A DNA stretch of 64,000 nt from Squalus acanthias. Taxonomy: Eukaryota. Under the pieces are notes generated by a model. It made no database searches, had not been told where the DNA came from, and saw only the letters and a list, made by a program, of their open reading frames with translations. Made by a program: the position numbers and the translations under genes. Below are positions 14,960 to 63,632 of the stretch, one piece after another. The stretch lies in contig CM059432.1 in NCBI GenBank assembly GCA_030390025.1, positions 63,056,001 through 63,120,000 on the forward strand. The letters run 5' to 3'. Numbering within the stretch: position 1 is the stretch's first letter; each line of letters begins with the position of its first letter.

Positions 14960-15285
14960 CCAGTTCTGATATAGAGTCGAGATCTGAAACGTTAACTCAT
15001 CTGTTCTCGCCACAGATGTTAGAGGTAAAATTCAACTTTGGTGAGGGTGCAAAACGGTCGATAGCAGATCGGCCGCCTGTTATACAATATGCCCGATTAT
15101 CCTTCCTATTGACTTCACTGAAAAACAATTCAGGCGGGCGTATAACGGGCGTCCGAACCGTAATCGGCCAAGTTTTCACCCCCACCGAAGGTGAAACTTC
15201 TGCCTGCAGACTGACCTGGTGAATGTATCCAGCATTTCTGTTGTTGCTGTTTCAGATTTCCAGCACCTACAGTATTTTGCCTTTT
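14960..15285 (+). mobile_element. Decayed Penelope-like terminal fragment interrupted by a small palindromic MITE (~15022-15204)
   Basis: CAGTTCTGA...CTGAAACGTTAACT...TTTCAGATTTCCAGCA motif, split by an element with a CTATTGACTTCACTG core like the MITE at 3149. Confidence 0.6.
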
Positions 15286-18591: not shown

Positions 18592-18629
18592 TTACCTGAC
18601 GAAGGGGCGACAGCTCCGAAAGCTTGTAA
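18592..18629 (+). ncRNA. Minimal type I hammerhead ribozyme motif, family B (stem III palindrome AGCU)
   Basis: TTAC-CTGACGA-A-GGGGC-GACA-GCTCC-GAA-AGCT-T-GTAA: complete catalytic core, stem I TTAC/GTAA, 5-bp stem II. AATAAA follows ~6 nt downstream. Probably a solitary Penelope-like terminus (inference). Confidence 0.7.
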
Positions 18630-20394: not shown

Positions 20395-21234
20395 GAGGGT
20401 CAAATTAAGCTGGTGGTGGGCGGGCATGGAGTGGTAAGTTTGTGGAGGCGGTTTTAACTGCGTAGCCGCCCTATACAGGCTGGGTGGGTTAATAATGTCC
20501 CCTAAATCACGGAGCCTTCCCGATCCTGTACTGGCCTCCCTGACACACAACCAGGAAAAACGACAGGTTTCATGCTCCCCATTATCATTAAAAGACTGAA
20601 CAACACATAGAATATATATCATAGAAAATGAAACTTAGTCCAGTTAAAGGCAGTAACTTCAACTTGGAATTCAGATGGTGCTCATTAACAGATGAAACTG
20701 CGCCCTAACCTTTTAAGTTGCCATATTCACCTCAAGATGTAATTACTACCTTGCAACTCATTCCCAGGTGTCTTATTTTTCTGTGCAAAATGCATCGGAA
20801 CCACTGTTTTAAACACTATTTACATAATGAATTATTTATGTATAACTACGTTATACTATGTTTTACTACCTTAAAGGCACAATATAAATACAAGTTGTTG
20901 TTGCTGTTGTGCCATTAGAAATTATCAGTGGTAGGACAGCATAATATACAAGTACCACAAACATGTATCAGATTCAGAGTATGTGTGACACAGCTCTTTA
21001 ACCTTTACTCCACAAACTGAGGATATATGTTATACAGCAGTATTCTGTATACCAGATAGAATGAAATAATGAATATTAACAGTTGTTAAGAGCATTGTAC
21101 CTTGATAAATTCTAAATATTCTTGGTTCTGTACTTGAAAATACTGTAATCAGAGCAACCCTCTTCATGGGTTTTGGAATAGATTTGTAAGACATTAAATG
21201 ATTTATGATCCTAGACATAAATGATGTTTTTCAG

Positions 21235-23112: not shown

Positions 23113-26100
23113 AAGAACACAATAAGAAATAGGAATAGGAGTAGGCCATTTGGCCCTTCGAGCCTGTTCCGTCATTCAATAAGATCATGGCTGATCTTCT
23201 ACCTCATCTCCACTTTCCTGCAGTATCCCCATAGCCCTTGATTCCCTTAATATCCAAAAATCTATTGATCTCTGTCTTGAATATACTCAACGACTGAGCC
23301 TCCACAGCCCTCTGGGGTAGAGAATTCCAAAGATTCACCACCCTCTGAGTGAAGAAATTTCTCCTCATCTCAGTCCTAAATGGCCTACCCCTTATTCTGA
23401 GACTGTGACCCCTGGTTCTAGACTCCCCAGCCAGGGGAAACATTCTCCCTGCGGCTACCCTATCAAGCCCTGTAAGAATTTTGTATGTTTCAATGAAATC
23501 ACCTCTCATTCTTCTAAACTCCAGTGAATATAGGCCCAGTCTACTCAATATCTTCTCATAGGACAATCCCCCCATCCCAGGAACCTGTCTGGTGAATCTT
23601 CATTGCGCTACCTCTATGGCAAGTATATCCTTCCTGAGGTAAGGAGACCAAAACTGTACACAATTTTCCAGGTGTGGTCTCACTAGGGCCCTATATAATT
23701 GCAGTAAGACATCTTTACTCTTATACTCAAATCCTCTTGTAATAAAGGCCAACATACCATTTGCTTTCTTAATTGCTTGCTGTACCTGCATGTTAACTTT
23801 CAGTGATTCGTGTACAAGGACACCCAGGTCCCTCTGAATGGCAACATTTCCCCAAAAATACTCTGCTTTTCTATTTTTCCGACCAAAGTGGATAACTTCA
23901 CATTTCTCCATATTATATTCCATTTGCCATGTTCTTGCCCACTCACTTAGTCTGTCTATATCCCCTTGAAGCCTCTTTGCATCCTCCTCACAACTTACAT
24001 TCCCACCTAGCTTTGTATCAGCAGCAAACTTAGATATATTACATTTGGCCCCCTCATCCAAATCATTGATATAGATTGTGAATAGCTGAGGCCCAAGCAC
24101 TGATTCTTGTGGTACCCCACTAATTACAACCTGCCAACCTGAAAATGACTTGTTTATTCCTACTCTCTGTTTTCTGTCCATTAACCAATCCTCAATCCAT
24201 GCTAGTATATTACTCCCAATCCCATGAGCCCTAATTTTGTTTAATAACCTCTTGTGTGGCACCTTATTGAATGCCTTCTGAAAATCCAAATACACTACAT
24301 CCACTGGTTCCCCCTTATGTATTCTGCTAGTTACAACCTCAAAAAACGTGAACAGATTTCTCAAACATGATTTCCCTTTCATAAATCCATGTTGACTGCT
24401 CAATCCTATTATTATTTTCTAAGTGCCCTGTTACCATGTCCTTAATAATAGATTCTAGCATTTTCCTTACTACTGATGTCAGGCTAGCTGGTCCGTAGTT
24501 CCCCATTTTCTCTCTCCCTCCTTTCTTAAATAGTGGGGTTACATTTTCTACCTTCCAATCTGCAGGAACTGTTCTAGAATCAATCAAATTTTGGAAGATG
24601 ACAACCAATGCATCCACTATTACTATAGCCACCTCTTTCAAAACCCTAGGATGTAGGCCATCAGGTCATGGGGATTTATTGGCTTTTAGTCCGATTAATT
24701 TCTCCAGTATTACTTTTTTACTAATACTAATTTCTTTCAGTTCCTCATTCTCGCTAGACGCTTGGTTCTCCATTATTTCCAGGAAGTTTTTTGTGTCTTC
24801 TTCCATGAAGACAGACAGAAAGGCCGGAATTTTGCCAGTGCTCAGGGGGCGAGTTTGGAGGCAGGACATCTGGCAAAATCGCAAAGATTGATAGCGGATC
24901 GGAAACCCGCTGTCAACCCGCCTCCAATCAATCTTCCCAAGTGTCGGATTCCCGATTTGCGCATAGACCCGACACATAGCGGCGGGAAGAGGATTATAGT
25001 CACTTAACTGCTTGTTAACAGGTTGTTAACAGGCAGTTAACAGGCTTTTTCCAATTTTGACACTTCTGCTGTGGGCTTCCCGATGTCCGGACACCACGCC
25101 AGGTAAGTGTGGCGTGTTGTGAGTCTGCTGTAATGTTTCTGCATTGATGACAGCTGCAGAAGTGTTGTGTTGGATCCAATGGTGCACTGGTGAGTTTCAG
25201 AGGTAAGTAAATGTTGGGAAATTCATTTGTACTGCATTTAGACTTTTCTGTAGGTAACAAGTTTTGAATTGTATGTGTAGTCCCACCTCATTGGGAGAAC
25301 TTCCCTCACCAGTGACAGATCGCTTCTGTAACCTCACCTGCAGCTGCCATTTGTTCTAGCCTAAGGAGGGAGTCACTGGAGAGCCTGGGTGCAAGAGCTC
25401 ACCTGTGAACAGTGATTGTCAGTGTTTGCAGCACCTCAATGCTGTCAAACACTGAAAAATCAACTGTCAAAAAAAATTGTGTGTGGTCCCTTTAAGAAAA
25501 CCGGCAGTTGGCGCGTCATCAAATGATGTCATCTGACAACGGCTTCCTCTTAATTGGCCGGCAAGCCCGCACAGCGGGCTTAACAAGGCCAATTGATGAA
25601 AAATTACGTCTGTGGGCCGGATGTAGTTGGGGGCGGGACTGGAACCCGGAAGCCAGCTGACCCGCTCCCAAGCTGCCTCGAAGCAGAAAATCGCGGCCAA
25701 AGTATTTGTTTAATTTCTCTGCCATTTCCTTATTCCCCATTATAATTTCTCCTGTCTCAGCCTATAAGGGATCCATATTTACTTTCGCTAATCTTTTCCT
25801 TTTTACATACATAAAGAAGCTTTTACAGTCTGTTTTTATGACTCTCGCTAGTTTACTTTCATTCTATTTTCCCTTTCTTTATCAATTTCTTGGTCCTCCT
25901 TTGCTCAATTCTAAAAATCCTTCCAATCCTCAGGCTTACTGCTCTTTTTGACAACATTATAAGCCTCTTCCTTTGATCTAATACTATCTTTAACTTCTCT
26001 TGTTAGCCATGGTTGGACCACTTTTCCTGTGGGGTTTTTGTGCCTTAAAGGAATGTATATTTGTTGTAAATTATGTATTAATTCTTTAAATGCTAGCCAT

Positions 26101-26772
26101 TGCTTGTCTATCATCATACCTTTTAATGTAGTTTCCCAATCTACCTTAGCCAACTCGCCCTCATACCTACGTAGTTTGCTTTGTTTAGATGTAAGACCCT
26201 AGTTTCGGATTTAACTAAATCACTTTCAAACTTAATATAAATTCTATCATATTATGGTCACTCTTCCCTAAGGGCCCATTTACTACAAGGTTATTAATTA
26301 ACCCTTTCTTATTGCACAATACTAGATCTAAAATAACTTGTTCCCTAGTTGGTTCCTCAACATACTGATCTAGAAAACTATCTTGCATACATTCCATGAA
26401 TTTGTCCTCCACACTATTACTACAAATTTGGTTTGCCCAGTCTATATGAAGATTAAAATCCCCCATGATTACTGTATTACCCTTGTTACATGCACCTCTA
26501 ATTTCCTGATTTATACTCTGCCCTACATTACAACTACTGTTTGGGGGCCTATAAACCACTCCCACCACTGTTTTCTGCTCCTTGCTGTTTCTTAGCTCCA
26601 CCCAAACTGATTCTACTTCTTGATTTTCAGAGCTAAGATCCTTTCTCTCTACTGTCTTTACCCCATCCTTTATTATCAGGGTTACCCCTCCTCCTTTTCC
26701 ATTTTGCCTATCTCTTCTAAAAGTTAAGTATCCTGGAATATTTAGTTCCCAACCTTGGCCACTTTGCAACCA
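23113..26772 (-). mobile_element. CR1-clade LINE, 5'-truncated within the endonuclease, decayed, interrupted by a Harbinger MITE
   Basis: Endonuclease GVVYRPP, MGDFN, SDH (26215-26769). RT LDFQKAFNKVPH, GVPQESVLGP, FAAD (23600-24403). C-terminus 23204-23575; CR1 3'UTR at 23125-23205. Confidence 0.95.
24822..25698. mobile_element. Harbinger-type non-autonomous element (877 bp) inserted in CR1 ORF2
   Basis: Ends GGCCGGAATTTT and AAAATCGCGGCC, TSD AAA/AAA. Removing it restores the CR1 peptide (NKYF-LSVFMEED). Contains ORF2 5' region homology (GAGTCACTGGAGAGCCTGGGTGCA). Confidence 0.9.
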
Positions 26773-27324
26773 AGTGTGTTAATATTAAGTGTGTTAATAT
26801 TAAGTGTATTAAGCATTCATATGTGAACTTCACTGATCAGAAAGTTCTTCCCTACAAACTCACATAGTTGCCCCATAATCAGTGCATGAAAGCTTTCTGT
26901 TCCTCAAATCGGTATGTTTTGAAGATATTTAATATTGTGGAGTGGAGATGGATATCAACACTTGTGGTTTATGTAGTCAGGACTTGTACCCCACATCCCT
27001 GTGCTCTGCTTTTCATTGGCAGGAACCCAAGAGGTGAGAGCTGTGTGTACGTTCACAAGTCAAACATTATTGACATCATTCTTTGCTGCAAAAAGTTGAT
27101 ACCTTCAGAACAAATGGCATGTTGTGTTCAGAGAAGGACATGGGATATTCTAATGGAGACATTGTAGATCACAAAAATAACAAACTTCTTCTCAAAATTA
27201 AAGTGCTAGCAACAAGATGTTACTGCTGATATCCACATTGTATCCAATAAATCTTCAAAACCTAACATCTGCTGTAGTTTAAATGTTGGACGGTAAAACC
27301 TAAGGGAATTACTTTAATACTAAA

Positions 27325-33372: not shown

Positions 33373-33757
33373 ATAATCTAGGCTGATGTTTCTGTGCAGT
33401 ACTAAGGGAGTACTATACCTTTGGAGATGCTGGGGGCTAAATTGGATAGCCCTTGAAAATGGGCGCAGGGATCGTGATGTGCGATTACTCCGCGCCCGTT
33501 TGATGTAATGCAGACAGCACGGTATCTTCATGCTGCCTGCTCATTATCATGATTTCTGTGTACAGCCAGCGCTAACCATGCTGTTGATTGGCTGCACACA
33601 TCAGGAGGGGTCCAAAATTTTAACTTGCTAGCACTAGTTAAAGCTAGCCTGCATTGCTTAAAGCTAACCTGCACCTCTTAAAGGTGAGGTGCATTGTGAT
33701 TGGAGCAGGTGCTGGAAGTCCTTTATAAACTGAATCTGATTTGGGAAAGAGAGAAGA

Positions 33758-34530
33758 TTGGCTGAACATGGGAGAGAACGGGCACCCAGGTTTTCCAACG
33801 CTGCACTGGAGGTCTTGGTGGAGGAGGTGGATAGGAGGAGAGACATCCTGTATCTGCAGGGGGCCAGGAGGCTCTCCAGACACACGATGAGAAGACAATG
33901 CCAGCTATTCAACCATGACAGCCACATCACCCAAACATATTGCACGACACTCACTGACACAGTTCCCTCTCTCTTGCACAGGGCTTTGTGCAGAGCTTGG
34001 AGCCCATCCTTTCCAGCATGGAACTGGTGGCCAACTCCATCAACACACTTGTGGACGCAACCACGATGCAGCGTCTGATGGCCAATGTCTCAGCTTCCAT
34101 TGCAGCACAAGCAGCTTCCACCAAAAGTCTGAGTGCTGCAGTGGAAGCTCAGACTGAAGCCATGCAAACTCAGACTGCTGCCATTGTGGCTGCGGATGCT
34201 AGTGTTCAAAGGGACTTGCAGGGTGTCGCAGCAGTCCCGCAATTTGTCCTCCAACAGATTACTATGATTGCTGAGTTGTCGCCCCGGTGGAGTGGCAGTA
34301 GCTCCATGGAGCACAAGCCTGCTGTCCTTTCTCAGGATGACAGCATTCATGCTCCCATCCCTGCCACTCTGCCAGTGCCCTTGCTGTTGCCTGTCAGCCA
34401 GACCTTCTAGGCCCAGAGGTACTTGAGGTTGTACTGCAATCTGCATCTGCAGTCTCCCTCACTGAAAGTCAGCAGCCTTCTGCCAGCCACTGGGGTAGCA
34501 CTGCATAGGAGTACTAAAACAGGCAAAGGC
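33758..34530 (+). pseudogene. Harbinger ORF2 (Myb/SANT plus coiled-coil-like region) remnant
   Basis: RERAPRFSNAALEVLVEEVDRRRDILY, then a deletion, then the Ala/Gln-rich helical segment in ORF 33988-34410. Confidence 0.75.
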
Positions 34531-34769
34531 ACATGAAAGACAGGCACTAAGGGAATGCACAATGATGATTAGTTTAAGTTTGGATGCTATATGGCATGAT
34601 TTCATTTATAAATTTAGTTTGGAATGTTTATTTTGTGTTGGCTTTTATTTTTGCATTGTACCAGGAGGACAAAGTGATGGTCAGTGACAGAGGGAAGGTA
34701 AGGAGTGTGGGCTTGTTGGTGAATAGGGCATTGGGGTTCTTTATGTACAGCCCAGGCAGAAAGGGGCTG

Positions 34770-35900
34770 TCTAGGTTGCCATCTCCCTTCCTCTTCCTCC
34801 TCTTCCGCCTCCTCCTCTTCAATGTCCTTCGCTTCCACCGCCTCCTCATGCTCCTGCTCCTAAGCTTCTCGCCTGAAAGGTGGTGGCAAGGGCTGTTCTC
34901 TCATAATGGCAAGGTTGTGAAGCATGCAGCATACCACCACAAATCTTGAGACCTGCTCACCCGAATACTGCAGGGCTCCTCCCATGCGGTCCAGGCAGCG
35001 GAATTGTTACTTCAGCATGCAAATGGTCTGCTCTATCACATTTCTTGTGACAGCATGGCTCTCATTGTATGCATGCTGCGCATGTGTGCGTGGGTTGCGA
35101 ACCGGAGTCATGAGCCATGTCGTCAGCGGATAGCCCTTGTTGGCCAGTAGCCACCCTTTGTTTAGTCATAATGGCTGACATGCAGCTGGCACAGTGAACT
35201 GACGCAAAATGAAGGCATCGTGATTGCTGCCAGGATACCAGGCATTGAACTGTGTGATGTGCTGCCTATGGTCACACACAAACTGCACGTTGAGGGAGTG
35301 GAATCTCTTTTGGTTCCGGTACATTGCAGAATTGACATGCGGCGCCTGCAAAGCAATGTGCATGCAGTCAATGGCACCCTGCACCATGGGAAAGTCTGCA
35401 AACCTTGCAAACCCTCGTGCTCGCTCCGCTTGCTTGTCTCTGGCAAGAGGGAATGAAATGAAATTCTCTCTTTGACTAGAGAACCTCAGTGACCTCCCTT
35501 ATGCAACAGTGGACTGCAAACTGAAAGATGTTTCTAATATCTCCAGAACCAGCCTAGAATGAGCCAGACGCATCAAAGTTCCTCGCCACGGTCACTTTCA
35601 CAACCACTGGCATTGCAGTCCTTCCCCTGCTCTGAGGTTGGAGTTGTGGCTGCAGCAGTTGGCAGATTTCAGTCACAACCTCCTTAGTGAAGCGGAGACA
35701 TCTCAAATATTGGTTGTCACTGAGGTTCGGGTAGGAGAATTGCTCCCTGAACACCCTGGGCGGATATGACCACCTACTGAGAGCCCTTCTTCCCCTCTTC
35801 CTCCTCCCTCTTCTAGCAGCTTGTCCTGCTCTGCTAGGCCTCTGCTCATTCTCCCAGTCATGCTCAATTCCAAGAGGAAGGCCTACTAGGCACTGATGTC
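34770..35900 (-). pseudogene. Harbinger DDE transposase pseudogene (HARBI1-like)
   Basis: LRFTKEVVTEICQLL, KVTVARNFDASGSF, VQGAIDCMHIAL, FHSLNVQFVCD, YPGSNHDAFIL and an acidic tail, spread across several frames. Confidence 0.9.
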
Positions 35901-36860
35901 TGGGAGCAACTGGATTGTGCAGAAGCCTTGAAGTCAGCAAAAAGTACTTCAACACCTGCCACACCACTTCCTGTAGACTTTTGAAACTTGAATTAACTAT
36001 GTAAAGCACCAAAAACGTATAGAATTGTAGCAACAGCCAGAAGCAATAAACCAGTAACTACCCTGTAAATAGCGCTGGTGGTGGGGTGGGTGGGTGGGGG
36101 TCCTTCATGCTGCTTAACATAATATTCAGCTGTGCGAGGTTAAGAGAGAGTGTTGGCTGGAGCGTGGAGCTCCAAAGTGGCAGCGCTGGTGTCAAATCAG
36201 CATTCCAAGCTGATTGACGTCATGATTTGCCTGCTCTGCATACTTCCGACGGTCATTTGCTACACGTGCCCTGATGCCTTCACCAAGATGGCATCTGGCA
36301 TGCTTTGCATCAGAAGTGTGAGCGTGCGCTGTGGATGTCATTTTGGATCTTGAACGGCGCTACCAAGCCCAATTTCTCACCCGCACTCTTTTGGATGTGA
36401 CATTAAATCGAGGCCCTGTTAGGTGGATGTAAAATATCTCAAGGCACTATTCGAATAAGAGCAGAGGAAGTCTCTTGGTGTCCTGGCCACCATTTATCCA
36501 TCAATTAACATCACTAATACAAATTAGCTGGTCATTTATCCCATTGCTGTTTGTGGGACATATCTGTGTGCAAATTGACTGTCACATTTCCCTATGTTAA
36601 AACAGTTATTACACTTCAAAAGTACTTCAGAGGATGGTAAAGGTGCTATATAAATGCAAGTTCTTTCTTGCATTTTTTTTTAGTCATATATGTAAACTAG
36701 GAGTACAGGCCTAAATAGTCCTTGGGGCACAAAGTATGGAATACTTTTCAGCCTCAGTTACAAAGCTAACTTTATTATAGCTATCTGACGTATAAAATGA
36801 CAACTATAGTTTAGAGGTATTATTAAAACTAAATATATGAAGCATAAGATGTAAAATATT

Positions 36861-38819: not shown

Positions 38820-39115
38820 CTTGAAGACAGTGACTCATACTTGGGTATGATTCCACAGTTGTTGGCAGCCCTCTAGAACCTTGCGCAAGTGACCATTCTT
38901 TATGTGTCAACCTAGACGGCGAATGATGATGAATATTCAGCTGTGGGTGTGAAGGGGGTCATCGACCTGAAACGTTAATTCTGTTTCTCTCTCCACGATG
39001 CTGCCTGACCTGCTGAGTATTTCCAGCATTTTCTGTTTTTATTTCTGGGAACTTTCTGGTTTGTATAAGCTCAATACCATATTGGGTGGCACTGTTACTC
39101 ACTGAGCCATTGGAG
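38820..39115 (-). mobile_element. Decayed tRNA-headed SINE containing a + strand Penelope terminal fragment (~38955-39046)
   Basis: SINE body like 8090-8425. The insert GGTCATCGACCTGAAACGTT...CTGTTTTTATTTC lacks the CTGA half of the hammerhead. Confidence 0.6.
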
Positions 39116-41673
39116 CAATGGGGGAAATATTCAATCCCTCACCACGTTGAACGTAAACCTTTACAAATAAAAATGAAATCTAAAATCTCACTATTAATAA
39201 AAAGGACATGGCTGTTTTTATCTATCTCTTATGATGGGTTTACTTAGCATCTTCAAAGGCCCTAAAATGTGTCTATTTGTGAAGCTGAAGCTTAAAACTC
39301 ATCTACCTGGTACACAAGCATGTCTATACCCAGAGAACGTGGACATATTCCTCTTCCCTCAATATAAGTGCCCTGAGACTGAGTGTGAACTGACTACCAC
39401 AATCCCACCCAAACCATCTATACTGTCAAGAACCCCAAGTTCGGCAAGATCATGAAGCTGCAGATGCATATCAGGAAGCAAATCACTAAGAATTCAATGA
39501 TCAATAGTTGACTGTTAGGTGTAAAAATGTGGGTGTAACATCGTGATTGGCACCTGCCAATCACCATGGTGCTGGGGAAACTTGTAGGATGTACAAAATG
39601 TAATTTTTTATGTGCTAACAGATTTTGTTCTTTTGCTCACACATTCTCCAATGGGAAGGAATGGAACTTGGTGCCGTACATACATAGAAATATCCTTTAT
39701 AATTTCCCTTAAACAGACAAGCAGAGCCAGTGGTTTAAAATGGATGACATTTGGGCATATGTGAACAAATTGCAAATGGTCCAATTCAGTTTCTCTGCGG
39801 ATCCCTAACAAATTATTTTGAGTAATCTTGTATGTTGCCTGCTTTGTTTGTGTTACCACAAGTTATATCATACTGTAAAGGAGAACACATTTCATTTCAA
39901 TCACTACTCCTATGATGAAATATTCAACGATCTGCATAGGTAATAGCATGCATCATAAGTGATGGAAAGTAATGATTTCTCTCATTAGAGCAACATGAGG
40001 GGAAATAAGGAAAGGCTTATCCAGGGAAGAAAACCTTGGCTTTGGTTGTGGCCCTGAAGGGATGTAGTAGAAAGTAATCTGTCAACAACTTTTCCTGTTA
40101 TTTCCCCAAACACCTAGGAAGAAGTTTTTTTGAAAATATATATGTTCAAATGAGAAGTTTTAAACATAATTTAACTTTCTGCCAGAACTAGAGGGAAACA
40201 GTATCATGCACTCCTCCATGTACTTCTGCTTCGAAATAATAACATGAACAAGTACAGTTAAAGCCGTATGGTCCCAAATCCAAAAAGAATTAAAATGTTA
40301 GATTGCAACACCCAACACTGCATCCCGTTTGTTTGGGGAGTTTCCACCACTATCAGTAACCCCTCCTCCCCCTACCCATGTCACAGTATTTGTATGCTGG
40401 TTAAAAGTTGAATATAAAGAACAACCCCTTAGCTATTTGTTGGCTGTTGCTTCTCCTACTTCTTCAGGTCTCTGCTGATTGACTTTGACTTAACCCAGAA
40501 AGGATCAGCTCTCCATTAAAGATATATGATAAGTGAAGGAAAAAACAAACAAATGACACTGAAATATGTTAGGAACAAAATTCTACTTTTATGATTCAAT
40601 CGTGTTTTTGGATAGAGAAGTCATCGGAAATACTCAAGAGACAATTCTCATGCCCTTGTACAAGCTCTGTGCAGTAAATCTCCAGATTACACAATGTGAA
40701 TAGTATTTGTTCCTTTGCAGGCACACTCAGCACATTGTAATCTTACCACATCTTTAGCAAAAAGAAGACATCCAGCTGCGGTGTTTGGGTGGATAGACTG
40801 CACGCTGTATTGCATTGGTTTAATGGAACAGACTGACCTTCTTACATTCCTATGCCTTAACTCACAGGCAATATCCATTAACAAATACTGCACTGGAGTT
40901 TTTTTCCTTTATTGTTGAGGTTTATTTTCTAAATTTTCAGCCTTTTGAACAGCTGTATACTGCATTTACAGCAACCAAATTGGCATCCAGCCATTGATAA
41001 AAGTTTTAATTATTGGCAGATGTGAAGATTTTTTAAAGGAACAGGATCTCAACTTTAGTATGAGTGGATCATGATTAAAAAAATGTCTTGTCCACTGAAT
41101 ACATAGGGCTAGAAATAGTGCTCCCTTACACCAGCTGAGCACATGCAAGTGATGAAAAGGGAGCGGAAATTCAGGATTTTGATCCCTGCATCAGTTCTGT
41201 ACCCGCACCTGGTATTGCGCTGGGTTTGTGCTAGCAGTAAAAGAGGCTTGCGCTACTTCATGTTATTATATTAAATGCACTGGGGCATTCTGGAGAGGTG
41301 TCCTGTCTTCTCTGGAAATTGCTGCATGTATCAAAATCGCTGGAACAGACCGTAGGCCTCACGGTGCACAGCCGCAGGAGAGGAGGACAGGTTATGTGGG
41401 TCAGAGAATTGGGATTACGAGGTTCAATCTCTGACCAATGCCCCCTGTGAGTACGGCTTCCCACAAGGAGCACGGGTATCATGGAATCACACCTAGTGTC
41501 AGCATGAGTTAAGATAGTCAGGAAAGGAGAGGAAAAACCAAGAAAATTGGGGAAAAAAGCCAAATGTATAGAGGACACTGTTTTACAAACGCCTGCCTTT
41601 TTTATAACATTGAAATAAGGTACTTCAAGAATACTACAAAACATAGATCTAATATTTGAACACAAAGGATATC

Positions 41674-50377: not shown

Positions 50378-50557
50378 AACAACAACTTCCACTTATATAG
50401 CACCTTTAATGAAGTAAAATGTCCCAAGGTGCTTCATAGAAGCGTAATCAGACAAAAAGGAGACATTAGGACAGGTCAACCAGGTAGGTTTTAAGCAGAG
50501 TCTTAAAGGAGGAGAGGGAGGTGGAAAGGCAAAGTGGTTTGGGGAGGGAATTCCAGA
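50378..50557 (-). mobile_element. L2 LINE 3' tail fragment
   Basis: CAACAACAACTT...TATATAGCACCTTT and GGAGGGAATTCCAGA match 19108-19320. Confidence 0.75.
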
Positions 50558-51117
50558 CCAGCTGAGTATTTCCAGCATTTTCTGTTTTTTGTAGGCTTCG
50601 CAAAATCCCCCAGAAACTCGAATAGGACCCTAAAGGGGGTGAGTTTTGGATCTTAACACGAATTTGGAATGGTGGGACCAAAATGAAAGAATTTGAGGTC
50701 AAGGCCTCAGTTTTGAAGACATTTTGACGGGAATCAAGGAAGGAAAATAAAGAACCTGAGGAAAATGACTTTGGATGATAAAGATACCTTTTTAAAAGGG
50801 CCATTGGGAAAACCTGCAGTCACAGAAACACAGGCTGCGGGAAGGGGTGTGGTAAGGCAGTGGACAGCTTTTGGATTTTGGGACCAAGCCAAGCTGTCTG
50901 GGAGATGTTTGCACTGCAATCCAACCAAGGAGGAAGAGCCTCATCCAAAACCTCACAAACACATTCAAAAATAAATAAACCAAGACCCCTTTTGAAATCC
51001 CCAGGTCCAGACAGAATGCTGGAAGTCTGAAAACAATAAAACTGCCAGTATACAGTTTCATAGCCCATCATCCCATCAAAACCCGATTAGCCAAGTATCG
51101 ACAGGAACAGTTTAACA

Positions 51118-51299: not shown

Positions 51300-52216
51300 C
51301 AACTGAAACCTAAATCACTTTAACACGAAAACGATTAGTAAAGCAGTTTTGGTGCGCAAAACACAATAGACCTGAACAGTATAATTGGGGGCCTATTCCC
51401 CCCAGAAGAAGGACGGAAGCGAAGAGGAGCGAAGAAAGAGAGCCACACAGGTTCGACACCAGAGCCAAGCAACAAGGAACCTTCGGAAGGCAGGCAGGCC
51501 TAAAGCCACGGGCAAGAAGACACGAGGAACCCGAGAGACACTGTGGTGGTGTCTGTTCAAGCCGTACGGTTTGTTACAACACTATACTTAAAGTTAGTTC
51601 AAGGCTGTCCAGAGAGGCAGTTTAAAGTTAGTAACAGTACCGAGGCACGCAAGGACAACACGCCACAGTAAGGGGGGGTCATCGACGGACCCGACTGGGA
51701 AAAAGGTTCCCAAACGCCTCGCAGCAATCAAGGCCCCATGAACCAACCAACACAACGCCACCGACCAACCAGGTGCGAACCAGGCCATCGCGACCACCGA
51801 AAGACCAACGCCAGGAAAAACCGAAGACACGCAAGTTTCCACACTACAAACTATTCCTGACTTACCCTTGGGAAAGATTTTCCCTAAAAAAGCTCTAAAC
51901 CCTACCTCTAACAAAGAAAAATTGGGTACTCATCTGATACAATCCAATACGCACCTTACCGCATCAGCAGACAGACCCAAACTGACCTGGAGTGCAGCTG
52001 AAGTCTTCCACCACGTCCGAGGTACGGCAGGCCCCAACAACCAAAAAACCCCAGTGAACCCCGAAATCGCGAAATACTTCAACTGTCAAGAACTGTCAAG
52101 GAGTGGTGAGCATTATTACGATAGCAAAATACTGCAGATGCTGGAAATCCGAAATAACAACAGAAAACGCTGGAAAAACTCAGCAGGCGAGGCAGCATCC
52201 ATGGAGAGAGAAACAG

Positions 52217-52253
52217 AGTTAACATTTCAGGTCAAAGACCTTTCGTCAGAACT
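52217..52253 (-). ncRNA. Minimal type I hammerhead motif, family A, with stem III variant AUGU
   Basis: AGTT-CTGACGA-A-AGGTC-TTT-GACCT-GAA-ATGT-T-AACT on -, inside the Penelope 3' end. Confidence 0.6.
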
Positions 52254-52528
52254 GGAAATAGCAGGAAATCAAATAGATTTAAGGCAAGGATAAAGCTGGG
52301 AAAAGGGGGAGGGGATGAAAGAACAAAAGGAGAGATAAAGAGACATTAAGAGATATTCAAGGCAAGAGGTGGTGTTAATGTGACAGGTTAAGGCTAAAAG
52401 AAGTGTGAAATGCACTGGCAGAATGAAGGACAGCTGCCAGCTTCTAGGAGGGAAAAAAAAGGGGGGGGGGGGGCGGGCAAACAAAAGGGTGGATGAAAAA
52501 ATAAAATATAAATGTGATGGGGCTAAGG

Positions 52529-53665
52529 TTATGATCTAAAATTGTTGAACTCAATATTGAGTCCAGAGGGCTGTAGCGTGCCTAAACTAAAGATGAGGTG
52601 CTGTTCCTCGAGCTTACGCTGCGCTTCCGTGGAACAGTGTAATAGGCCGAGGACGGTGAGGTCAGAGTGGAAGTGAAGCGGTGAATTAAAGTGACAGGCG
52701 ACCGGGAGCTCGGGGTCCCCCTTACGGACTGAACGGAGGTGTTCCGCAAAGCGGTCACCCAATCTACGTTTGGTCTCCCCAATGTAGAGGAGACCACATC
52801 GTGAGCAGCGAATACAGTATACTAAATTGCAGGAAGTACAAGTAAATTGCTGTTTCACCTGGAAGGGGTGTTTGGGGCCCTGGACAGTGGGAAGAGGGGA
52901 GGTATAAGGGCATGTGTTGCATCTCCTGCGCTTGCACGGGAAGGTGCCGGGCGAAGGGGAAGGGGTGCTGGGGGTGGTAGAGGAGTGGACGAGGGTGTCG
53001 CGGAGGGAGCGGTCCCTGCGGAATGCTGAAAGGGGAGATGAGGGGAAGATGCGTTTGGTGGTGGGATCACGCTGGAGGTGGCGGAAATGGCGGAGGATGA
53101 TCCGTTGAATGTGGAGGCTGGTGGGGTGAAAGGTGAGGACAAGGGGAACTCTATCGTGGTTCCGGGAGGGAGTGGCAGGGGTGAGGGCAGAAGTGCGGAA
53201 GATAGAACGGACACGGTCGAGGGCCGTGTCGACCACGGTAGAGGGGAATCCTCGGTTGAGGAAAAAGGAAGACATGTCGGAAGCACTGGTATGGAAGGTG
53301 GCATCATCAGAGCAGATGCGGCGGAGACAGAGAAACAAGGAGAATGGAATAGAGTCCTTACAGGAGGCGGGGTGGGAGGAAGTGTAGTCCAGGTAGCTGT
53401 GGGAGTCAGTGGGCTTGTAGTGAATGTTAGTCAATAACCTATCCCCAGAGATGGAGATGGAGAAGTCGAGGAAGGGAAGGGAAGAGTCGGAGATGGACCA
53501 TGTGAAGGTGAGGGAAGGGTGGAAATTGGAAGCATAGTGAATGAAATGTTTTAGTTCAGGGCGAGAGCAGGAGACGGCACCGATACAGTCATCAATGTAC
53601 CGGAAAAAGAGGTGAGGGAGGGGACCCGAGTAGGACTGGAACAAAGAATGTTCCACATATCCCAC
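52529..53665 (-). CDS. Penelope-like RT C-terminal half plus GIY-YIG endonuclease (uninterrupted, lacks its N-terminus)
   Basis: FFRYIDD, LPFLD, YKPTD, Cys linker PCKRRRCNTC, LVYCIRCSRCGLLYIGETKRRLGDRFAEH, and C-terminal GLN. Confidence 0.9.
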   Translation of the reverse strand: MGYVEHSLFQSYSGPLPHLFFRYIDDCIGAVSCSRPELKHFIHYASNFHPSLTFTWSISDSSLPFLDFSISISGDRLLTNIHYKPTDSHSYLDYTSSHPASCKDSIPFSLFLCLRRICSDDATFHTSASDMSSFFLNRGFPSTVVDTALDRVRSIFRTSALTPATPSRNHDRVPLVLTFHPTSLHIQRIILRHFRHLQRDPTTKRIFPSSPLSAFRRDRSLRDTLVHSSTTPSTPSPSPGTFPCKRRRCNTCPYTSPLPTVQGPKHPFQVKQQFTCTSCNLVYCIRCSRCGLLYIGETKRRLGDRFAEHLRSVRKGDPELPVACHFNSPLHFHSDLTVLGLLHCSTEAQRKLEEQHLIFSLGTLQPSGLNIEFNNFRS

Positions 53666-54039
53666 GAAAAGGTGAGCATTATCCCTGGTCCTCTGGAATC
53701 AAACCTAGCTAGGCAGTGGGATTGGAGGAATAAGGGGTTTTGTGTACTGTAATTCTCCCTCGCCTGTACCGTGTGTTCCCCAACCTGTGTTTAAGTATTA
53801 AGTATGTTTTAAGATTGTTTGTGTTGTAGTTACCTTTTCTTGAATAAAAGTTAAAGTTCTTTCATCAAAACCTGTCGTCTACTGCACCTTTTGTTCACGG
53901 TCCCCAAATAAGTCCTAGGTCTAGAACCAGGGGCGTGGGAGCGATTCGAACTGCTCACTGACCCTACCACACCACCCCCTACATTTTATTTCAGATTTCC
54001 AGCATCCACAGTATTTTGCTTTTGTGTAAGTACATTTGA

Positions 54040-55024: not shown

Positions 55025-55270
55025 TGCACCAAGTCCCGTTCACTCATCACCTCTGTGCCAACCTACATTAGCTCCTGAGCCATCAATGTCTACATTTTAA
55101 AATTCTTACTCTTTGTTCAAATCCCTCCATGGCCTAACCGCTTCCTATCTCAATAACCTCCTCCAGCCCAACAACTCTCTGAAAAATCTCCATTCCTCCA
55201 ACTCTGTCCTCTTGTGCATCCCCCACTTCCTTTGTCCCACTATGGACGGCCATGCCTTCAGCCGTCTAGG
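55025..55270 (+). mobile_element. L2 LINE fragment
   Basis: FKILTLLFKSLHGLTASYLNNLLQP. Confidence 0.75.
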
Positions 55271-55707
55271 TGGTGCAAGGCAAAAGGAGATGGTAATGGG
55301 ACAAGTTAAGAAACAAAAGATGGCTTTTTTCTTTCTTAACTTGTCCCATTACCATCTCCTTTTGCTTTGCACCATCTCTTAATGTCTCTTAATGTCTCTT
55401 AATCTCTCCTGCCTTCCATCTAGAGCCATCTTTTGTTTCTTAACTTGTCCCATTACCATCTCCTTTTGCCTTGCACCATCTCTTAATCTCTCTTAATCTC
55501 TCCTGGCTGCCATCCTATCACAGACCTTCCCATTTGTTCTTTCCTCCCCTCCCCCCTTTCCCTGCCCCTGCACTTGCTTAAAAACCTGTTCAATCTCCAG
55601 CTTTTTCCAGTTCTGACGAAGGGTCATCGACCTGAAACGTTAACTCTGTTTCTCTCTCCACAGATGCTGCCTGACCTGCTGAGTATTTCCAGCATTTTCT
55701 GTTTTTA
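55271..55707 (+). mobile_element. Penelope-like 3' terminal copy with inverted and duplicated 5' junction
   Basis: 55271-55325 is the reverse complement of ~55423-55478; 55331-55420 is duplicated at ~55436-55513; ends in the shared Penelope terminal sequence. Confidence 0.85.
55609..55645 (+). ncRNA. Minimal type I hammerhead ribozyme motif, family A (stem III palindrome ACGU), intact core
   Basis: AGTT-CTGACGA-A-GGGTC-ATC-GACCT-GAA-ACGT-T-AACT. Confidence 0.7.
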
Positions 55708-56527
55708 CTTCAAATGTACTTCATTGGCTGTAAAGCGCTTTGGGATGTCCTGAGGTCATGAAAGACGCTATAGAAATGCAAGTCTTTTTTTATAGGCACA
55801 GTTGTGCCCAGGACATGGCCCCAAATTGTCCCAACTCCATATGTTGCTGAGGCTTGAACCATAGAGCACCACAAGCCAATTTGGCTCCCAGCACAGGCCC
55901 CAGTGGAAAACCCAGGATTGGTGAGAAAATTGCTCCAAGCACAAAATTCCTGGCTTTCTGTCACCTCAGCATTTGCTGCATGACTTGGACTTTGGCAGAA
56001 AATTCTATCTGCATTCTAATGGGCTACGTCACTACAGTACAAAATAATAAAACAGAATCTCCTCCAAACAGTTTAAATAAGCTTGAAGATTTACAACCTC
56101 AGGGTGGAGCTGAGACCCCTCCCCCCTTTGTCCCCCTCCCCATTTTTATCTTTACTGAATAATTTGAAATCAAGAAATGCTGCTGGAAGATATTGGTTGC
56201 AGTAAGCAGGTGGAAGTGAGCAGATTTTAGGAGCAAAGCCAAGCCCGGTAAAATTGGAAGTTTTCCAACGGGTCTCAGACACTCCTATAAAAAAGAAGAG
56301 AAGCATTGAAGGAGAACCTGTTATGATATTGAATTGTAGCCAGCAACATCATCAGGGAGTCAGCACTTTCAGTAGCTTCCCTAGAGAAAATTTTGCAGTG
56401 ACATGGGACAAACGGAATGCCTTCAAGCTATTGTGGTCAGGAGAGATCTACTGGAGAGAATAGTAATAGACTAGCAAAAAGGTTTGCAAGAGATTTTGAT
56501 GAAAAGTACAGTCAATATTACAAATTA

Positions 56528-56989
56528 CAACAGAAAACGCTGGAAAAACTCAGCAGGCCAGGCAGCATCCGTGGAGAGAGAAACAGAGTTAACGTTTCAG
56601 GTCAAAGACCTTTCGTCAGAACTGGAAAAAAGCAGGAAATGAAATAGATTTAAAGCAAGGATAAAGCTGGGAAAAGGGGGAGGGGATGAAAGAACAAAAG
56701 GAGAGATTAAGAGACATTGAGAGACATTAAGAGATATTCAAGGCAAGAGGAGGTGTTGATGTAACAGGTTGAGGCTAAATGAAGTGTGAAATGCACTGGC
56801 AGAATGAAGGACAGCTGCCAGCTTCTGGGAGGGAAAAAAAAGGGGGGGGCCAAACAAAAGGGTGGATGAAAAAATAAAATATGAATGTGGTAGGGGCCGA
56901 GGTTATGATCTAAAATTGTTGAACTCGATGTTGAGTCCAGAAGGCTGTAGGGTGCCTAAACGAAAGATGAGGTGCTGTTCCTCAAGCTT
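56528..56989 (-). mobile_element. Penelope-like 3' fragment (last ~25 codons plus 3'UTR)
   Basis: Near-identical to 52157-52615. Confidence 0.9.
56587..56623 (-). ncRNA. Minimal type I hammerhead ribozyme motif, family A, intact core
   Basis: AGTT-CTGACGA-A-AGGTC-TTT-GACCT-GAA-ACGT-T-AACT on -. Confidence 0.72.
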
Positions 56990-57755
56990 TAGTCCATGAC
57001 CTATTTGGATAGTTGACTGGAAAATGAGAAGTCAAGAAATGAGTGAAGGTCACATTGCAGCACATAGACCTTCCTCAAGTTGTCAGGATCCAGTATCTCC
57101 TATTACTTCAGTAGATCATTTAGACTCTTGGCAATCTACAAATACTTTCAAATATGATCAAAACAGAAAATGATGGAAACACACACAGCACGTTAATCAG
57201 CATTTTTGGAGACAACAGAAAAGTCAATGGGGGTGATTTTCCTAGCCCTGAGGAGGCGGGTTTGGAGGCGGGACAGTTGGGAAAATCACAAAAATTGAGG
57301 GCGGGTTCGGAACCCGCCTCCAACCCGCTTCCGCGCAATTTTGATGGAGGCGGGCTTCATGGGTGCGATTCAGTCCCGCCTCCATGAGTCGGGATAGGCA
57401 GTTAAGACCCTTAACAAGCGGTTAAGGGCCTCTCTAATCCTATTTTGCCAGGCCTATGTTATTTTACCACATTTTCAGTGTGTTGCACAGCCCTCCTAAA
57501 CCACGCCAGCTAATCCTGGCGGCTTGACAAGTGGGTGGCCTCCTCACAGCTGCAGCTCCACCATAAAAACGGAGCTTTCAACAGGGATGAGTTGCAGGTG
57601 GCAGATTTTTTTCCCCACAGGTCTTTGAGCACTTTTTCCAGGCCTACTGAAGTCGGAGGTGGTGCAGCTGAGATCTATCAACTTTGGGACTTCCTGGGAA
57701 ATCCCTCTCCCCACTTGGACTGAGCGCTTCCCCAACGGAGGTATCTGCCAGCAGC

Positions 57756-58970
57756 ATGGGAAACATTTATTTCCTTTCATCATGGACCTCCGATTCGGAC
57801 GAGGAGCAGCCACGGCAGCAGCAGAACCAGGCAGAACAGCAGCAACAGCAGCAGGAGCACCAACCACCTGATCCTGCACAGGGCAGAAGGCACCAGCGCA
57901 TGGCAGCACGTCGCCGCAGGAGATACCCTCATCGCAGGGTTTGCAGACAGAGGATGAGCTTCCTCAACATGAGTGAGCAACAGTGCCAAAGGAGGCTGAG
58001 ACTTTCGCGAGAGGTAGTGGCTGACATCTGCGCAGTGCTGCACCAACACCTGGAGCCCAGAGGATCCGGTGGACACCCCTTACCAGTGGCTGTCAAAGTC
58101 ACCACCGCACTCAACTTTTTTGCCTCAGGCTCCTTCCAGGGATCATCAGCAGACATCAGCAGCTTCTCCCAGTTGGCCGCCCACAGTTGCATCATGCAGT
58201 TTACCGATGCCCTCTTTGCAAAGGCCCACAATTACATCAACTTTTCAACGGATCAAGCAAGTATAACCGCGCGTGCAGTTGGATTCTCAAATATGGCAGG
58301 CTTGCCAATGGTGCAGGGTGTCATACACTACACACATGTGGCCCTTAGGGCACCCCATCACAACCCAGCTATTTTTGTCAACTGCAAGGGCTTCCACTCC
58401 CTCAACGTACAGCTGGTGTGTAACCACAAAAAGGAGATTTTGCATGTTTGCGCCAAGTACTGTGGCAGTTGCTATGACTCATTCATCCTGCGGCAGTTTA
58501 GTGTGCCTCCGCTCTTCCAGCCGCCAAACCAACTTAACGGATGGCTACTTGGAGACAAGGGCTACCCCCTGAAGACGTGGCTAATGACACCGATCAGGAG
58601 GCCAGCAAACGAAGCTGAGGAGCGCTACAACGCCAGCCACATTTTGACCAGGTCCATCATCGAACAAACTATCGGCTTGCTGAAGATGCGATTCAGATGC
58701 CTTGACCGATCAGGTGGAGCCCTGCAGTACTCAGCAGCCAGGGTCTCCAGAATGGTCGTGGTCTGCTGTGTGCTGCACAACATCGCACAGCATCGTGGCT
58801 TGCAGTTGCCTGAGGGACAAGTGGCTCAGCGCATAGCCTCCTCAGATGAAGAGGAGGAGGAGGAGGAGGATGACTGAGTGGAGGCGCATCAATCAGCAGC
58901 AGCAGCAGCACACGAGCACATTGCTGCCCAGAATGCAAGGGATGCACTCATCTTGGCCAGATTTGCTTAG
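57756..58970 (+). pseudogene. Harbinger DDE transposase (HARBI1-like), near-intact
   Basis: ATG at 57756; [55 protein letters not shown]. The first catalytic Asp is replaced (GVIHYTH vs GAIDCxH). In-frame TGA at 58875-58877 precedes the conserved HIAAQNARDALILARFA-TAG (58970). Confidence 0.9.
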
Positions 58971-59228
58971 GCTGCTCATTCTAGCACATGTGCTTGGTTC
59001 CTTCTTAGCACAAGATAGACAATGGACATGATTCTCTGGCTTCCTCTCACTCTGACCACCAACCTGACCAAGCAAGTCTCGCTGAGGCCGCAATGTGGTA
59101 ACTTCCAAAACCAAAATCACAGAGGCCATAACGTCAACATTTTGCCATCAGCAGAGTTTAATACATTCACAAAGGGATGGCATTTAATTATTAAACACAA
59201 AAAAACACCCAAGTGACTGCCCGTGTGA

Positions 59229-61205
59229 CTAATTGTGCTTTATCTTCCTCTTACGCGTGCTTCTACATGGTGCTTCAGCAGAAGTGGAGGCCCCTTGCTC
59301 ATTTTCATGCTGCTCCTGCTTGAACACCTTTGGCAGGCATCCTCTGGGTTTGCAAGCCTGTGAGGGCTCGACAAAAGTCTGCTCCTCCTGCGGCTGTACA
59401 GGGGCTGAGACACCCATCTCAGTTGGGTGAGGACTCTGGTGGGGCTCTGACCGAGGGCAACGCAGTGGCATGGAAGTGTGAGCGCTTGGAGAGGAGCCCC
59501 CACTTCCTTGTTCTCTGCCACCATCATCCCTCTCATGGGTCAGCCCCACCTCAGTGCTAGCAAGTGGCTTGCGAGCACCTTGCTGCACATCAGGGGGGCC
59601 ATGAGGACCCGTGTTTGCACTGGCAGTCCTACTGCTGAGGACTTCCATGAAGCTCTGGTCTCTCTGATCAATAGCTGGCCATCGCTCCTCCAGAGATGTC
59701 AGTCTATTCTGAACATTGACCATGTTTTCAACACTCTGGCGACTTATCTCCTCCATGGCCCTGGCCATCGCCTGCAGAGAGGCAGCCATCGATACCACGG
59801 AGGTAGACATCGCTTCCACGGAGGTAGCCAACTTTTCCGAGGAGATGCGCTCATGCACCAATGATTCCACAAAGCCTCTGCTCATATTCACGCTGGACTC
59901 CTCCATCCTCTCCACACACGCAGTGACCCTGGAGACAAAACTTGCCAGAGACTCCTGCACCTGTTCCTGGAGTTCCAGCACCGCTCTCCTTCTGGATGGA
60001 CCCGGAGGTACAGGGTCTACATGCAGCTGAGCAGAGCTAGGAGAGTCCTGCGACCTCCGACGAGGCCTCTCCACTGCTGTCCCTGTCTCCACCACCTGCT
60101 GATGCTCACTTGTGAGCTGTGATCCACCAGGTGACAACACTACTCTATCTCTCGAAGGTCCCACCGAGGTGTGCGTATCTGCACTGGTGCTGGGTGCGCT
60201 TACATCTGCTAACGCTGCGTCCTCAGAGGTTGCAGGTTCCTCTGAGGTGTCTTCTACCTCAGGCTCTTCCTCCTGGACACTGGGGAGGGGGGCTGTTGAT
60301 GGTCCTGTGGGGGAGTAAAGGAATGAGTTAGAGATGTGACGGTAGTGTGGCATGCACATGCAATAGCGCAGATGATCAATTGGCATTCTATAAATTTACA
60401 TTCGCAGCCATTCTAGTGACTCCTGCAATGTAAAAGAGAGAGAAGCAAAACTATTCTGTCACCAGTTTGCTCTGCTGCACCCATCTGTCCATCCCCCCAC
60501 TTCCACCTCCACCTCAGCGCCAATGATTTCTAGGGCTGCCTCTTCAGCATTGGTCAAATGGGCGAGAGAAGGTGGCCCTCCTCCAGTCTTCGCCATTTCC
60601 CTTTTATTGTGGGCTCTCTTTTCCTGCAATGAGGGAGACAAGTGGAGGTTGAGTGAGAATGATGGAGTGATTATAGAGAGTCCAGAGCATAGATGCTTAG
60701 AAGGCGACAAAGATGGTGTGAGATTCCATGTCCAAGGGCCCTCCCTGTGTGTTGTTAGTCGTTGTCATTGCATAACATTGAAAGGGAGTGTGTGGGCAGC
60801 ATAGTCGAATAGTGAAGTGATTGTGTTCATAGAGTGAGAGGGATGGTTAAGGGTGCAAGGTTTGTAAGGGTAAAGTGGGATGTGTAGGAGGAGGTTGACA
60901 ATGCAGAGTGCTGGTGATGAGAGGAGAAGGGAGCAGAATGAGGGTCAAGCTGAAGGTCGACTCACTCTGGCTGATCTTACAAGGTCATTGAACCTCTTGC
61001 GGCACTGCAGCCATGTTCTGCTGCGCACAGATCTGGAGGTTACATCCCGTGCCAGCTGCACCCACACAGCCTTGGTTTGTTTGGGAGGCTTCTTCCTCCC
61101 AGATGAGGGGAAGAGCACCTCCTTGCGAGCTCTCACCCCCTGAACCAGAATACTCAGAGACTCAACGGAGAACCTCGGGGAGGCCTTGGCTCTCAAGTTG
61201 GCCAT
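59229..61205 (-). pseudogene. Harbinger ORF2 Myb/SANT-like DNA-binding protein, three exons (61205-60966, 60623-60463, 60304-59229)
   Basis: Exon 1 is 80 codons (PRFS...W...RTWLQCRKRFNDL) ending AGA|GTGAGT. Exon 2 follows CATTGCAG| and encodes EKRAHNKREMAKTGGGPP. Exon 3 follows CCCCCACAG| and has a helical region and basic C-terminus RSTRKRKIK. Phases fit only if one G is removed from the run at ~60493-60498. Confidence 0.8.
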
Positions 61206-62588
61206 TTCTTCTCTGCGAAGTGTTCAGCAGCCACAAAACAGCAGTGAAATGAGGCAAGGAAGCAAGCAGCCCTTAAATGAAACTGCATAAGTGGAGTCAG
61301 CAGAGACGAGTTTCAGTCCCAAAAGAGTAATTGGCCCAGGGGAACCCACACGTCTGGAATTAATTGGCCAATTAGGGGAAAATCCCAACTTTTTCCCACC
61401 TGACAGTGAAGGCGGGTTTGGAACCCACCCAAACCGAAACCCGCTCCCAACCCGCCTCCAATGGGAAAATCGCCCCCAATGTTTCAGGCTGGGCCCTTCT
61501 TTCGAACTGAGAAATGAAAGATGTAGAAGCATTTTAATAGAATCAGAAAAAAGGGGGAGGGATAAAACAAGCAAACAAACAGAGAAAGTATCAGTGAATG
61601 ATTGCTGGATGATGTAAAAATGTATCTCAGTCAAGTAATGGGACAGAGTATTAAAAACATTAAAGATATTAAAGAAACAAAAAATGTGTGAGAGGCACAC
61701 CCATGGATAAGGCAAGAAAATGGGAGAAATTGAAAACAGTAAGCCTGTGGATTAGATTTGAAATTAAAATCAGAAAATGCTGGCAAAGTACAGTAGATTT
61801 AAAATTCCCTGGGATGACCACAGGTCTCCTGCTGAAATTCCAGTGGGGGACTGGCAGAAACTCCAGATAAACAGTGTAAATGGCTGAAAACGTCATTGTT
61901 CCAGGGGTTCTGCTGAATTCCTGGATCGGGAGAACCCCGTGGAAATTCAAGGCCAGTAAGTCTGCCAGCTGAGAGAAAGGAAAGAGTAGGTCAACACTGA
62001 CAATGCAGCGCCCCTCACAACAACAATGCTGATCTGACACAGGCGCTGCTCCCCTTAAATGCCAAACCTTCTCTCCCCCCTCTGGAGACTGACAGGCCCA
62101 CTCCACATCACCAGCATCCCCGGCTGGACAGAAAATGGAGAAGGTAGCTAAGATCTGAAGCTACCCAAGGCAATGTTCAGACGAGAGGGCTGAGAAGTGT
62201 TCAAATGAGAAACGAGATGCAGACCTGAAATTCCCCGGATGCTTTTAAAAGGGATGAAGTGTGGTAGGGAGGGTCTTCCACCTGCAAATTTACTCTGCTG
62301 TTGGCCTCATCCCAAATTGTAGGTACAGAGTCATTTGGATAACTGAGGCGATGGCCCACGTCTGAGGTGGGGCAGCGAAAGCACCCAGCCCAATGAGGTA
62401 GCAAAACTTAGAGTGGTGCTCAAGGCCCTTATTAAGCCAAAGATGAAATAAGCAAAAAAGGAACTTTATTCCTCACAGGGTGGCAGGCTTAGGTAATCGA
62501 TCTCTTTGGGATTGATTACCTATGAGGTCTTTAGTGTTCGACTTCCGTAAGCCCAAAACAGAACCCATATCTGTCCTCAGCAGACGTA

Positions 62589-63504: not shown

Positions 63505-63632
63505 TCAGTTCTGAAGAAAGGCCCAGCCCGAATCATTGACTGTTCTCTTCACAGTTATTGACACACCTGCTGTGTGTTTACAGCTTTTTCTGCTTTTGTT
63601 TCAGATTTCCAGCATTTGCAGTATTTTACTTT
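63505..63632 (+). mobile_element. Old Penelope-like terminal fragment with a degenerate hammerhead
   Basis: AGTTCTGAAGAAAGGCCCAGCCCGAATCATTGACT...TTTCAGATTTCCAGCA. Confidence 0.6.

Follow-up and report, generated by a model that had tools for sequence, protein, structure and literature searches.

Minimal hammerhead ribozymes (min-HHRs) were described by Cervera and De la Pena in 2014 (PMC4209133) in the pLTRs of metazoan Penelope-like elements (PLEs). The pattern set out in that report consists of CUGANGA followed by one base, helix II, GAAA, a palindrome, an NUH site and a short helix I. Most of the copies presented there were single motifs on truncated elements, some of them lying close together on opposite strands, as in Schistosoma. 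The monomer was reported to remain uncleaved, and dimers and trimers to be cleaved weakly; dimer cleavage was addressed by Lunse et al. in 2017, as summarised in PMC6765202. According to Craig et al. 2021 (PMC8557442), a CX2-5CxxC linker marks the Neptune and Nematis clades of PLEs, and PLE repeats are reported to retain introns. A report by Li et al. 2026 (bioRxiv 10.64898/2026.07.22.740005) states that vertebrates carry Neptune and Poseidon elements, and describes PLE-derived non-LTR retrozymes in one chondrichthyan genome. In PAc, a Poseidon element of Anolis, Frangieh et al. 2024 (PMC11167929) reported a hammerhead that cleaves only with the element's protein, is dispensable for insertion in vitro and leaves no RNA-seq read ends. 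Our literature search, the results of which were partly swamped by the hammerhead shark, found no paper dealing specifically with PLE hammerheads of sharks. Similarly, no shark row occurs in the part of the PMC4209133 alignment that was covered, nor did its supplement file 2, searched by terms, yield one.

Here, both strands of the window, that is, the whole 64-kb stretch of DNA analysed, were searched with a minimal-hammerhead descriptor (helix I of at least 3 bp, CUGANGA, 0-1 extra base, helix II of at least 4 bp, GAAA, pairable positions 15.2/16.2, UH). Four complete motifs were found, as opposed to none in 500 dinucleotide shuffles (copies A to D; see Table 1). Copies A, B and C are members of one repeat family, hereafter the main family, and copy D represents a second, independent one. 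All four share CUGACGA, GAA, a helix I of 4 bp, a helix II of 5 bp, a palindrome of four bases and a U at position 17, and in all of them one extra A stands unpaired between positions 9 and 10.1. The core CUGANGA...GAAA, together with an NUH site, is present in these four copies and fails in five broken ones (see below). The palindrome at positions 15.1-16.1 has no loop and includes a wobble in copy B.

These features are shared with the min-HHRs of PMC4209133, which likewise display CUGANGA with an extra base, a 4-bp helix I, helix II, GAAA, a palindromic 15.2-16.2 region without a loop, an NUH site with H=U, a U-rich 5' flank and an occurrence mostly as single motifs on truncated copies, some of them neighbours on opposite strands. 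In contrast to the G-C consensus (>80%) reported there for the helix II closing pair (10.1-11.1), which is found in copy D only, this helix closes with A-U in copies A and B and with G-U in copy C; both pairs are represented among the members listed in that study (Latimeria 1 and 2). The original prediction had placed three motifs, one of them an AUGU variant, at the coordinates given in Table 1 for copies A, B and C. These coordinates hold, and all three motifs match the descriptor, which also recovered copy D, absent from that prediction. The stem II loop was correctly described as varying (ATC in copy C, TTT in copies A and B) with pairing kept, the closing pair being G-U in one case and A-U in the other. 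The proposed check with the Rfam Hammerhead_1 model was negative, since none of the 18 Rfam matches obtained over the whole window at E<=10 belonged to a hammerhead family. The top matches were miRNA models on an inverted repeat at 55268-55377, all of them under their gathering scores.

Copy D has the same layout as copies A, B and C, although the letters of helix I, helix II, the loop and the palindrome differ. Judged from the letters, nothing in the window is stronger structural evidence than a layout kept in this way. No stretch similar to copy D was found elsewhere in the 64 kb, and its surroundings contain neither a reverse transcriptase (RT) or EN remnant nor any ORF; from its architecture we infer a link to a Penelope element. 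The motifs are new members of the PLE minimal-hammerhead class and fall into two families.

Table 1. Hammerhead motifs, carrier insertions and interrupting elements in the 64-kb window
Feature	Position	Strand	Description
Copy C	55609-55645	+	Helix I 4 bp, CUGACGA, extra A, helix II 5 bp, GAA; G-U closing pair, loop AUC, palindrome ACGU, site GUU; predicted cut after 55641
Copy A	56587-56623	-	Complete motif; A-U closing pair, loop UUU, palindrome ACGU; predicted cut after 56591
Copy B	52217-52253	-	Like copy A, with AUGU replacing ACGU (C to T at CpG); predicted cut after 52221
Copy D	18592-18629	+	Helix I UUAC/GUAA, G-C closing pair, loop GACA, palindrome AGCU, site CUU
B insertion	52117-53670	-	5'-truncated, Penelope-like; RT C-terminal half (YIDD), C-x4-C-x2-C linker, GIY-YIG, 3' UTR, hammerhead, tail
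B target-site duplication, left	52105-52116	+	12 bp
B target-site duplication, right	53671-53682	+	12 bp; overlaps last codons of RT homology
A fragment	56522-56989	-	3' end; last 28 endonuclease codons, 3' UTR, hammerhead, short tail
C fragment	55439-55715	+	3' end; sister subfamily, 84-85% ungapped identity to A and B
Fold-back insertion	9749-9925	+	Inverted tail, then copy starting inside helix II (9801); hammerhead incomplete
Tail fragment	38956-39045	+	Truncated at helix II start; no CUGANGA
Decayed motif	14962-14997	+	G8 and A9 changed (2/11 core positions); tail interrupted by ~185 bp of other DNA
Old diverged copy	63507-63541	+	CUGAAGA and GAA kept, A15.1 changed
Old copy, damaged core	61478-61508 (5' part)	-	Last four bases at 57222-57225, past the Harbinger-type transposon
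Harbinger-type transposon	57229-61477		Terminal inverted repeats, 3-bp duplication
Transposon ORF, DDE_Tnp_4	57672-58877	+	
Transposon ORF, second	59229-60395	-	

Copies A and B lie on the same strand as, and after, the end of an ORF, and copy C is homologous to both. In the B insertion, the open frame 52529-53698 on the minus strand (homology 52547-53677, stop codon 52529-52531) ends about 280 bases before the hammerhead. This frame has 77 longer relatives at E<=1e-20, most of which contain an RT (PF00078), and the relative of highest identity is a protein of the shark Chiloscyllium punctatum (66% over 59% of the query), which suggests that the DNA is of shark origin. The YIDD motif, the C-x4-C-x2-C linker and, at the C-terminus, a GIY-YIG-type endonuclease motif are visible in the alignment with these relatives. 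Pfam detected GIY-YIG under the cut-off (E 4.4e-4; 20.9 bits against 22.6) and returned no RT family match for this truncated ORF, which is devoid of the first 420-510 residues of the full-length relatives and has thus lost its N-terminal half. The 12-bp duplication that flanks the B insertion occurs twice in the window, against 0.02 occurrences expected. The descriptor, the RT/GIY-YIG frame and the published pattern agree with the earlier proposal of Penelope-borne minimal type I hammerheads with a palindromic helix III.

The carrier element of copy B is probably of the Neptune type, the choice between Neptune and Nematis being based on the CX2-5CxxC linker and on the report of Neptune and Poseidon in vertebrates, and not on a tree. 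Like the Neptune-clade EN+ PLEs described in PMC8557442, the elements of the window are characterized by an RT, a CX2-5CxxC linker, a C-terminal GIY-YIG, truncation at the 5' end, 5' pieces in inverted orientation and a tail of 30-40 bp that is optional; in contrast to those elements, all the window copies are fragments. The A fragment (ca. 470 bases) is of the same subfamily as B, the two agreeing at 433 positions, with 23 mismatches and 20 gap columns, and no target-site duplication was seen around it. An inverted and duplicated piece at 55268-55430 precedes the C fragment. The unique stretch 55766-56523 is spanned by single contigs of two related genomes; these extend a further 268 and 283 letters without a match to A among the matches listed, which hints that the site at 56523 may be empty in these genomes and that A may be a later insertion.

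The B insertion itself lies inside another GC-balanced stretch (51500-52104 and 53683-53980), which has no Pfam match and occurs as a single copy in the window. Tail-only fragments of the main family, without a hammerhead, are located at 53984-54027 and 50553-50589, both on the plus strand. GGTGAG is found at or next to the plus-strand start of the two clear duplications, namely those of the B insertion and of the fold-back insertion, two cases that may be due to chance. The tail of the main family (55646-55715 on the plus strand, 52120-52216 on the minus strand) contains two pyrimidine tracts ending in AG and resembling 3' splice sites. The first AG precedes an ATG in copy C, and CGG and TGG replace the first CAG in copies A and B.

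Based on these data, the motifs are very probably minimal hammerheads in the terminal repeat of Penelope-like retrotransposons, likely selected in active parents, and the window copies, likely inert, each represent a truncated insertion of their own, inertness being a prediction. In active parents, the literature suggests that tandem pLTRs would supply adjacent copies, with the element's protein at hand, and that the motif would cut the precursor RNA. The tail immediately downstream of the motif would be where reverse transcription starts, with the result that even short insertions would carry all or part of the motif; two copies (9801 and 38956) have their start within helix II. Following integration, the loss of the partner, a neutral decay of CpG sites, the interruption by other elements and the presence of antisense neighbours would likely leave the motif inert.

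Five of the eight copies of the main family are decayed. All the broken copies announced by the original prediction (~9800, ~14962, ~38958, 57225/61481 and ~63506) were confirmed, 57225 and 61481 being the two parts of one split copy. The latter was interrupted by a Harbinger-type transposon inserted exactly at the cleavage site of the old hammerhead. In the old diverged copy, helix II exhibits one mismatch and one U-A to C-G change. The fold-back insertion is flanked by a 15-bp direct repeat (9734-9748 and 9926-9940), and it changes strand at a TGAC/GTCA inverted repeat located between core and helix II. Opposite-strand joints of this kind (55628-55630 to 55662) occur in 3-7 contigs each in two related genomes, and may reflect a recurrent template switch or an amplified derivative. 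Other mobile elements populate the window: a second, decayed Harbinger-type element at 33740-36057 (DDE_Tnp_4 at 35169-35498, Myb/SANT at 33740-34075), and RT-bearing LINE remnants at 11011-13671, 19370-20404 and 23204-26778 on the minus strand, with RVT_1 at 11535-12482.

Comparison of copies C and A revealed differences at 3 of the 37 motif positions, as compared with 18/81 upstream (Fisher P=0.07) and 7/65 in the tail (P=0.74); the better conservation of the motif over its flanks is not significant, and the 66-nt tail is conserved as well as the motif. Two of the three motif differences are in loop II and the third is an A-U to G-U change, and the 11 core positions of C are all identical to those of A and to those of B. 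When all eight copies are aligned, 89.7% of the cells pair, a proportion that drops to 10-49% upon sliding the partners. The covariation score, computed from eight copies only, was reached by 176/500 shuffles, with a change on both sides in a single pair out of 11 (U-A to C-G, in two old copies). Among the variants listed in the related-genome runs, only one lies inside motif C or A, at 56604, the third loop base of A. Evidence of selection for the motif in the window is weaker than the original prediction implied.

The palindrome variants, ACGU to AUGU in copy B and ACGU to ACAU in the 61481 copy, are both outcomes of CpG deamination, and the CpG observed/expected ratio of the window is 0.39. 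A tuned AUGU variant was considered and set aside, as C has likewise become T at a neighbouring CpG of copy B, 23 bases further on, and the mirror change is seen in the 61481 copy. The AUGU of copy B would most simply represent CpG decay.

When copies A, B and C are considered alone, the predicted fold joins the core UGACG to CGUUA, or in copy B to UGUUA, across the cleavage site. This alternative hairpin (55614-55642 in C, and the same positions in A and B) depends on the C at position 7 and has pair probabilities in context of 0.35-0.84. The predicted ground state, in which the core is paired with the cleavage site, has an energy of -9.1 versus -5.9 kcal/mol. Helix I has pair probabilities in context of 0.01-0.04 in copies A, B and C, as against 0.45-0.62 in copy D, the only complete motif whose predicted in-context fold keeps helix I, together with helix II. 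The core-to-cleavage-site hairpin may be a built-in off state.

The Penelope terminus is extremely abundant in two related genomes. Contigs on 55521-56720 numbered 143,833 and 164,350, a count that includes the neighbouring repeat tail, and the summed contig depth, which is not a copy number, was 0.66-8.0 million over or beside the hammerheads versus 5-15 in the unique bins 55801-56480. Of the 16 listed runs, four were compared; two of these, guessed to be RNA, cover the repeats and not the unique bins, and are neutral on transcription. A tail-pattern scan of viral contigs yielded no copy. Ten tail-pattern matches in metagenome contigs were dismissed as chance, with a GC content of 0.51-0.67, only 21-31 bases matched and a hammerhead in none of the ten.

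Such abundance, with the repeat end well represented in the two runs guessed to be RNA, raises the alternative that some copies cut read-through or host RNA, either by pairing in trans with abundant Penelope RNA or after refolding by a Penelope protein. Copy D would be the best candidate given its helix I probabilities, and the protein dependence of the PAc hammerhead (PMC11167929) is in line with such assistance. The resemblance to PAc extends to a minimal hammerhead located in a pLTR, near the tail where reverse transcription starts; unlike the window family, which is known from sequence alone, PAc belongs to another clade and was assayed. Two observations argue against this alternative, which we regard as unlikely. 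In the Anolis RNA-seq data reported in PMC11167929, no reads began or ended at the hammerhead site. Moreover, no host gene was found in the window when 351 of the 438 stop-free frames of at least 55 aa were searched with Pfam, since only transposon-type domains (DDE, Myb/SANT) reached the cut-off; this search left out 87 frames inside recognised transposons, and exons in frames of less than 55 aa would escape it. A PH_BEACH match at 40824-40994 was rejected as a host exon, being weak (E 0.0033), with no PDB relative and no exon look.

It is very unlikely that the motif of the main family has ceased to work as a ribozyme and is retained only as part of a conserved terminal signal, for protein binding, the start of reverse transcription or the splice signals of the tail. 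This reading would account for a tail as conserved as the motif and for a predicted ground state that occupies the cleavage site, and it is consistent with the hammerhead mutants that left PAc insertion in vitro unimpaired in PMC11167929. However, the unchanged core in the C-A and C-B comparisons, with the C-A differences confined to loop II and a wobble position, is at odds with it, as is the unrelated family of copy D, which keeps the architecture with other letters.

Minimal hammerheads in the terminal repeat of PLEs, carried by separate insertions, also remain the preferred reading when copies A and B are taken together. The original prediction had proposed that these two copies pair in cis on a minus-strand transcript, with release or circularisation of the ~4.4-kb RNA between them. 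Its geometry stands: 12 nested A-B base pairs, including one G-U wobble, make the pairing topologically possible, the predicted cuts are 4,370 nt apart, and GUU is given in PMC3138052 as one of the active NUH sites. Circularisation after double cleavage was proposed in PMC4209133 for true PLE tandems. Its occurrence in the window, however, is not borne out. Copies A and B are not the two pLTRs of one element, because B has its own target-site duplication and the DNA separating the two contains no coding remnant; a tblastn search with all 77 relatives detected no Penelope coding sequence between 53677 and 56906. An intact PLE (pLTR-ORF-pLTR) bounded by A and B was rejected likewise, there being no continuous element between them. 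The A-B interval is made up of other repeats and of unique DNA shared with two related genomes. A non-LTR retrozyme was also discarded. The retrozymes reported by Li et al. 2026 resemble the window motifs in that their type I hammerheads derive from PLE ends; in contrast, they are head-to-tail tandems with a hammerhead per unit, and the window copies are dispersed, A and B being 4.37 kb apart with unrelated DNA between them.

On a minus-strand RNA, copy C would be antisense to A and B, ca. 0.9 kb after A and ca. 3.4 kb before B, a point that the original prediction missed. As C is nearer than B to A, the A:C duplex would form first. Predicted energies are -284 kcal/mol for the duplex of A with antisense C, -7.9 for the A-B double hammerhead and -16.5 for two separate monomers. 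In the minimum-energy fold of the 4,600-nt RNA, A is paired with C over 35 of its 37 bases, and imposing the double hammerhead gave -1585.7 versus -1672.0, i.e. 86.3 kcal/mol worse. These fold energies are predictions, because nearest-neighbour values omit the tertiary contacts of the hammerhead core, Mg2+, protein, editing and splicing; the A:C duplex is likely to be far larger than such corrections. Upon minus-strand read-through, A is predicted to be captured by antisense C.

A broader scheme, for which we see hardly any chance, is that same-sense pairs of minimal hammerheads in host or read-through shark RNA, turned off by the core-to-site hairpin and on by a Penelope protein, would excise and close into circles kilobase stretches of RNA foreign to the element, the 4,370-nt one for instance, with antisense copies acting as blockers. 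That a minus-strand transcript actually joins A and B as a double hammerhead, with cleavage at both GUU sites and release, perhaps circularisation, of the 4,370-nt piece, is likewise very improbable, given the separate insertions, the capture of A by antisense C, the cost of forcing the double hammerhead and the weak cleavage reported in PMC4209133 for dimers even when adjacent.

The motifs described here add shark-type Neptune-like families to the hammerhead class described in 2014, a finding that carries little weight as it stands. Its importance would grow if dispersed copies were able to cut host RNA or turn it into circles, given that their copy number is very high. The predicted off-state hairpin may also offer a simple way to ask why such ribozymes need a partner or a protein.
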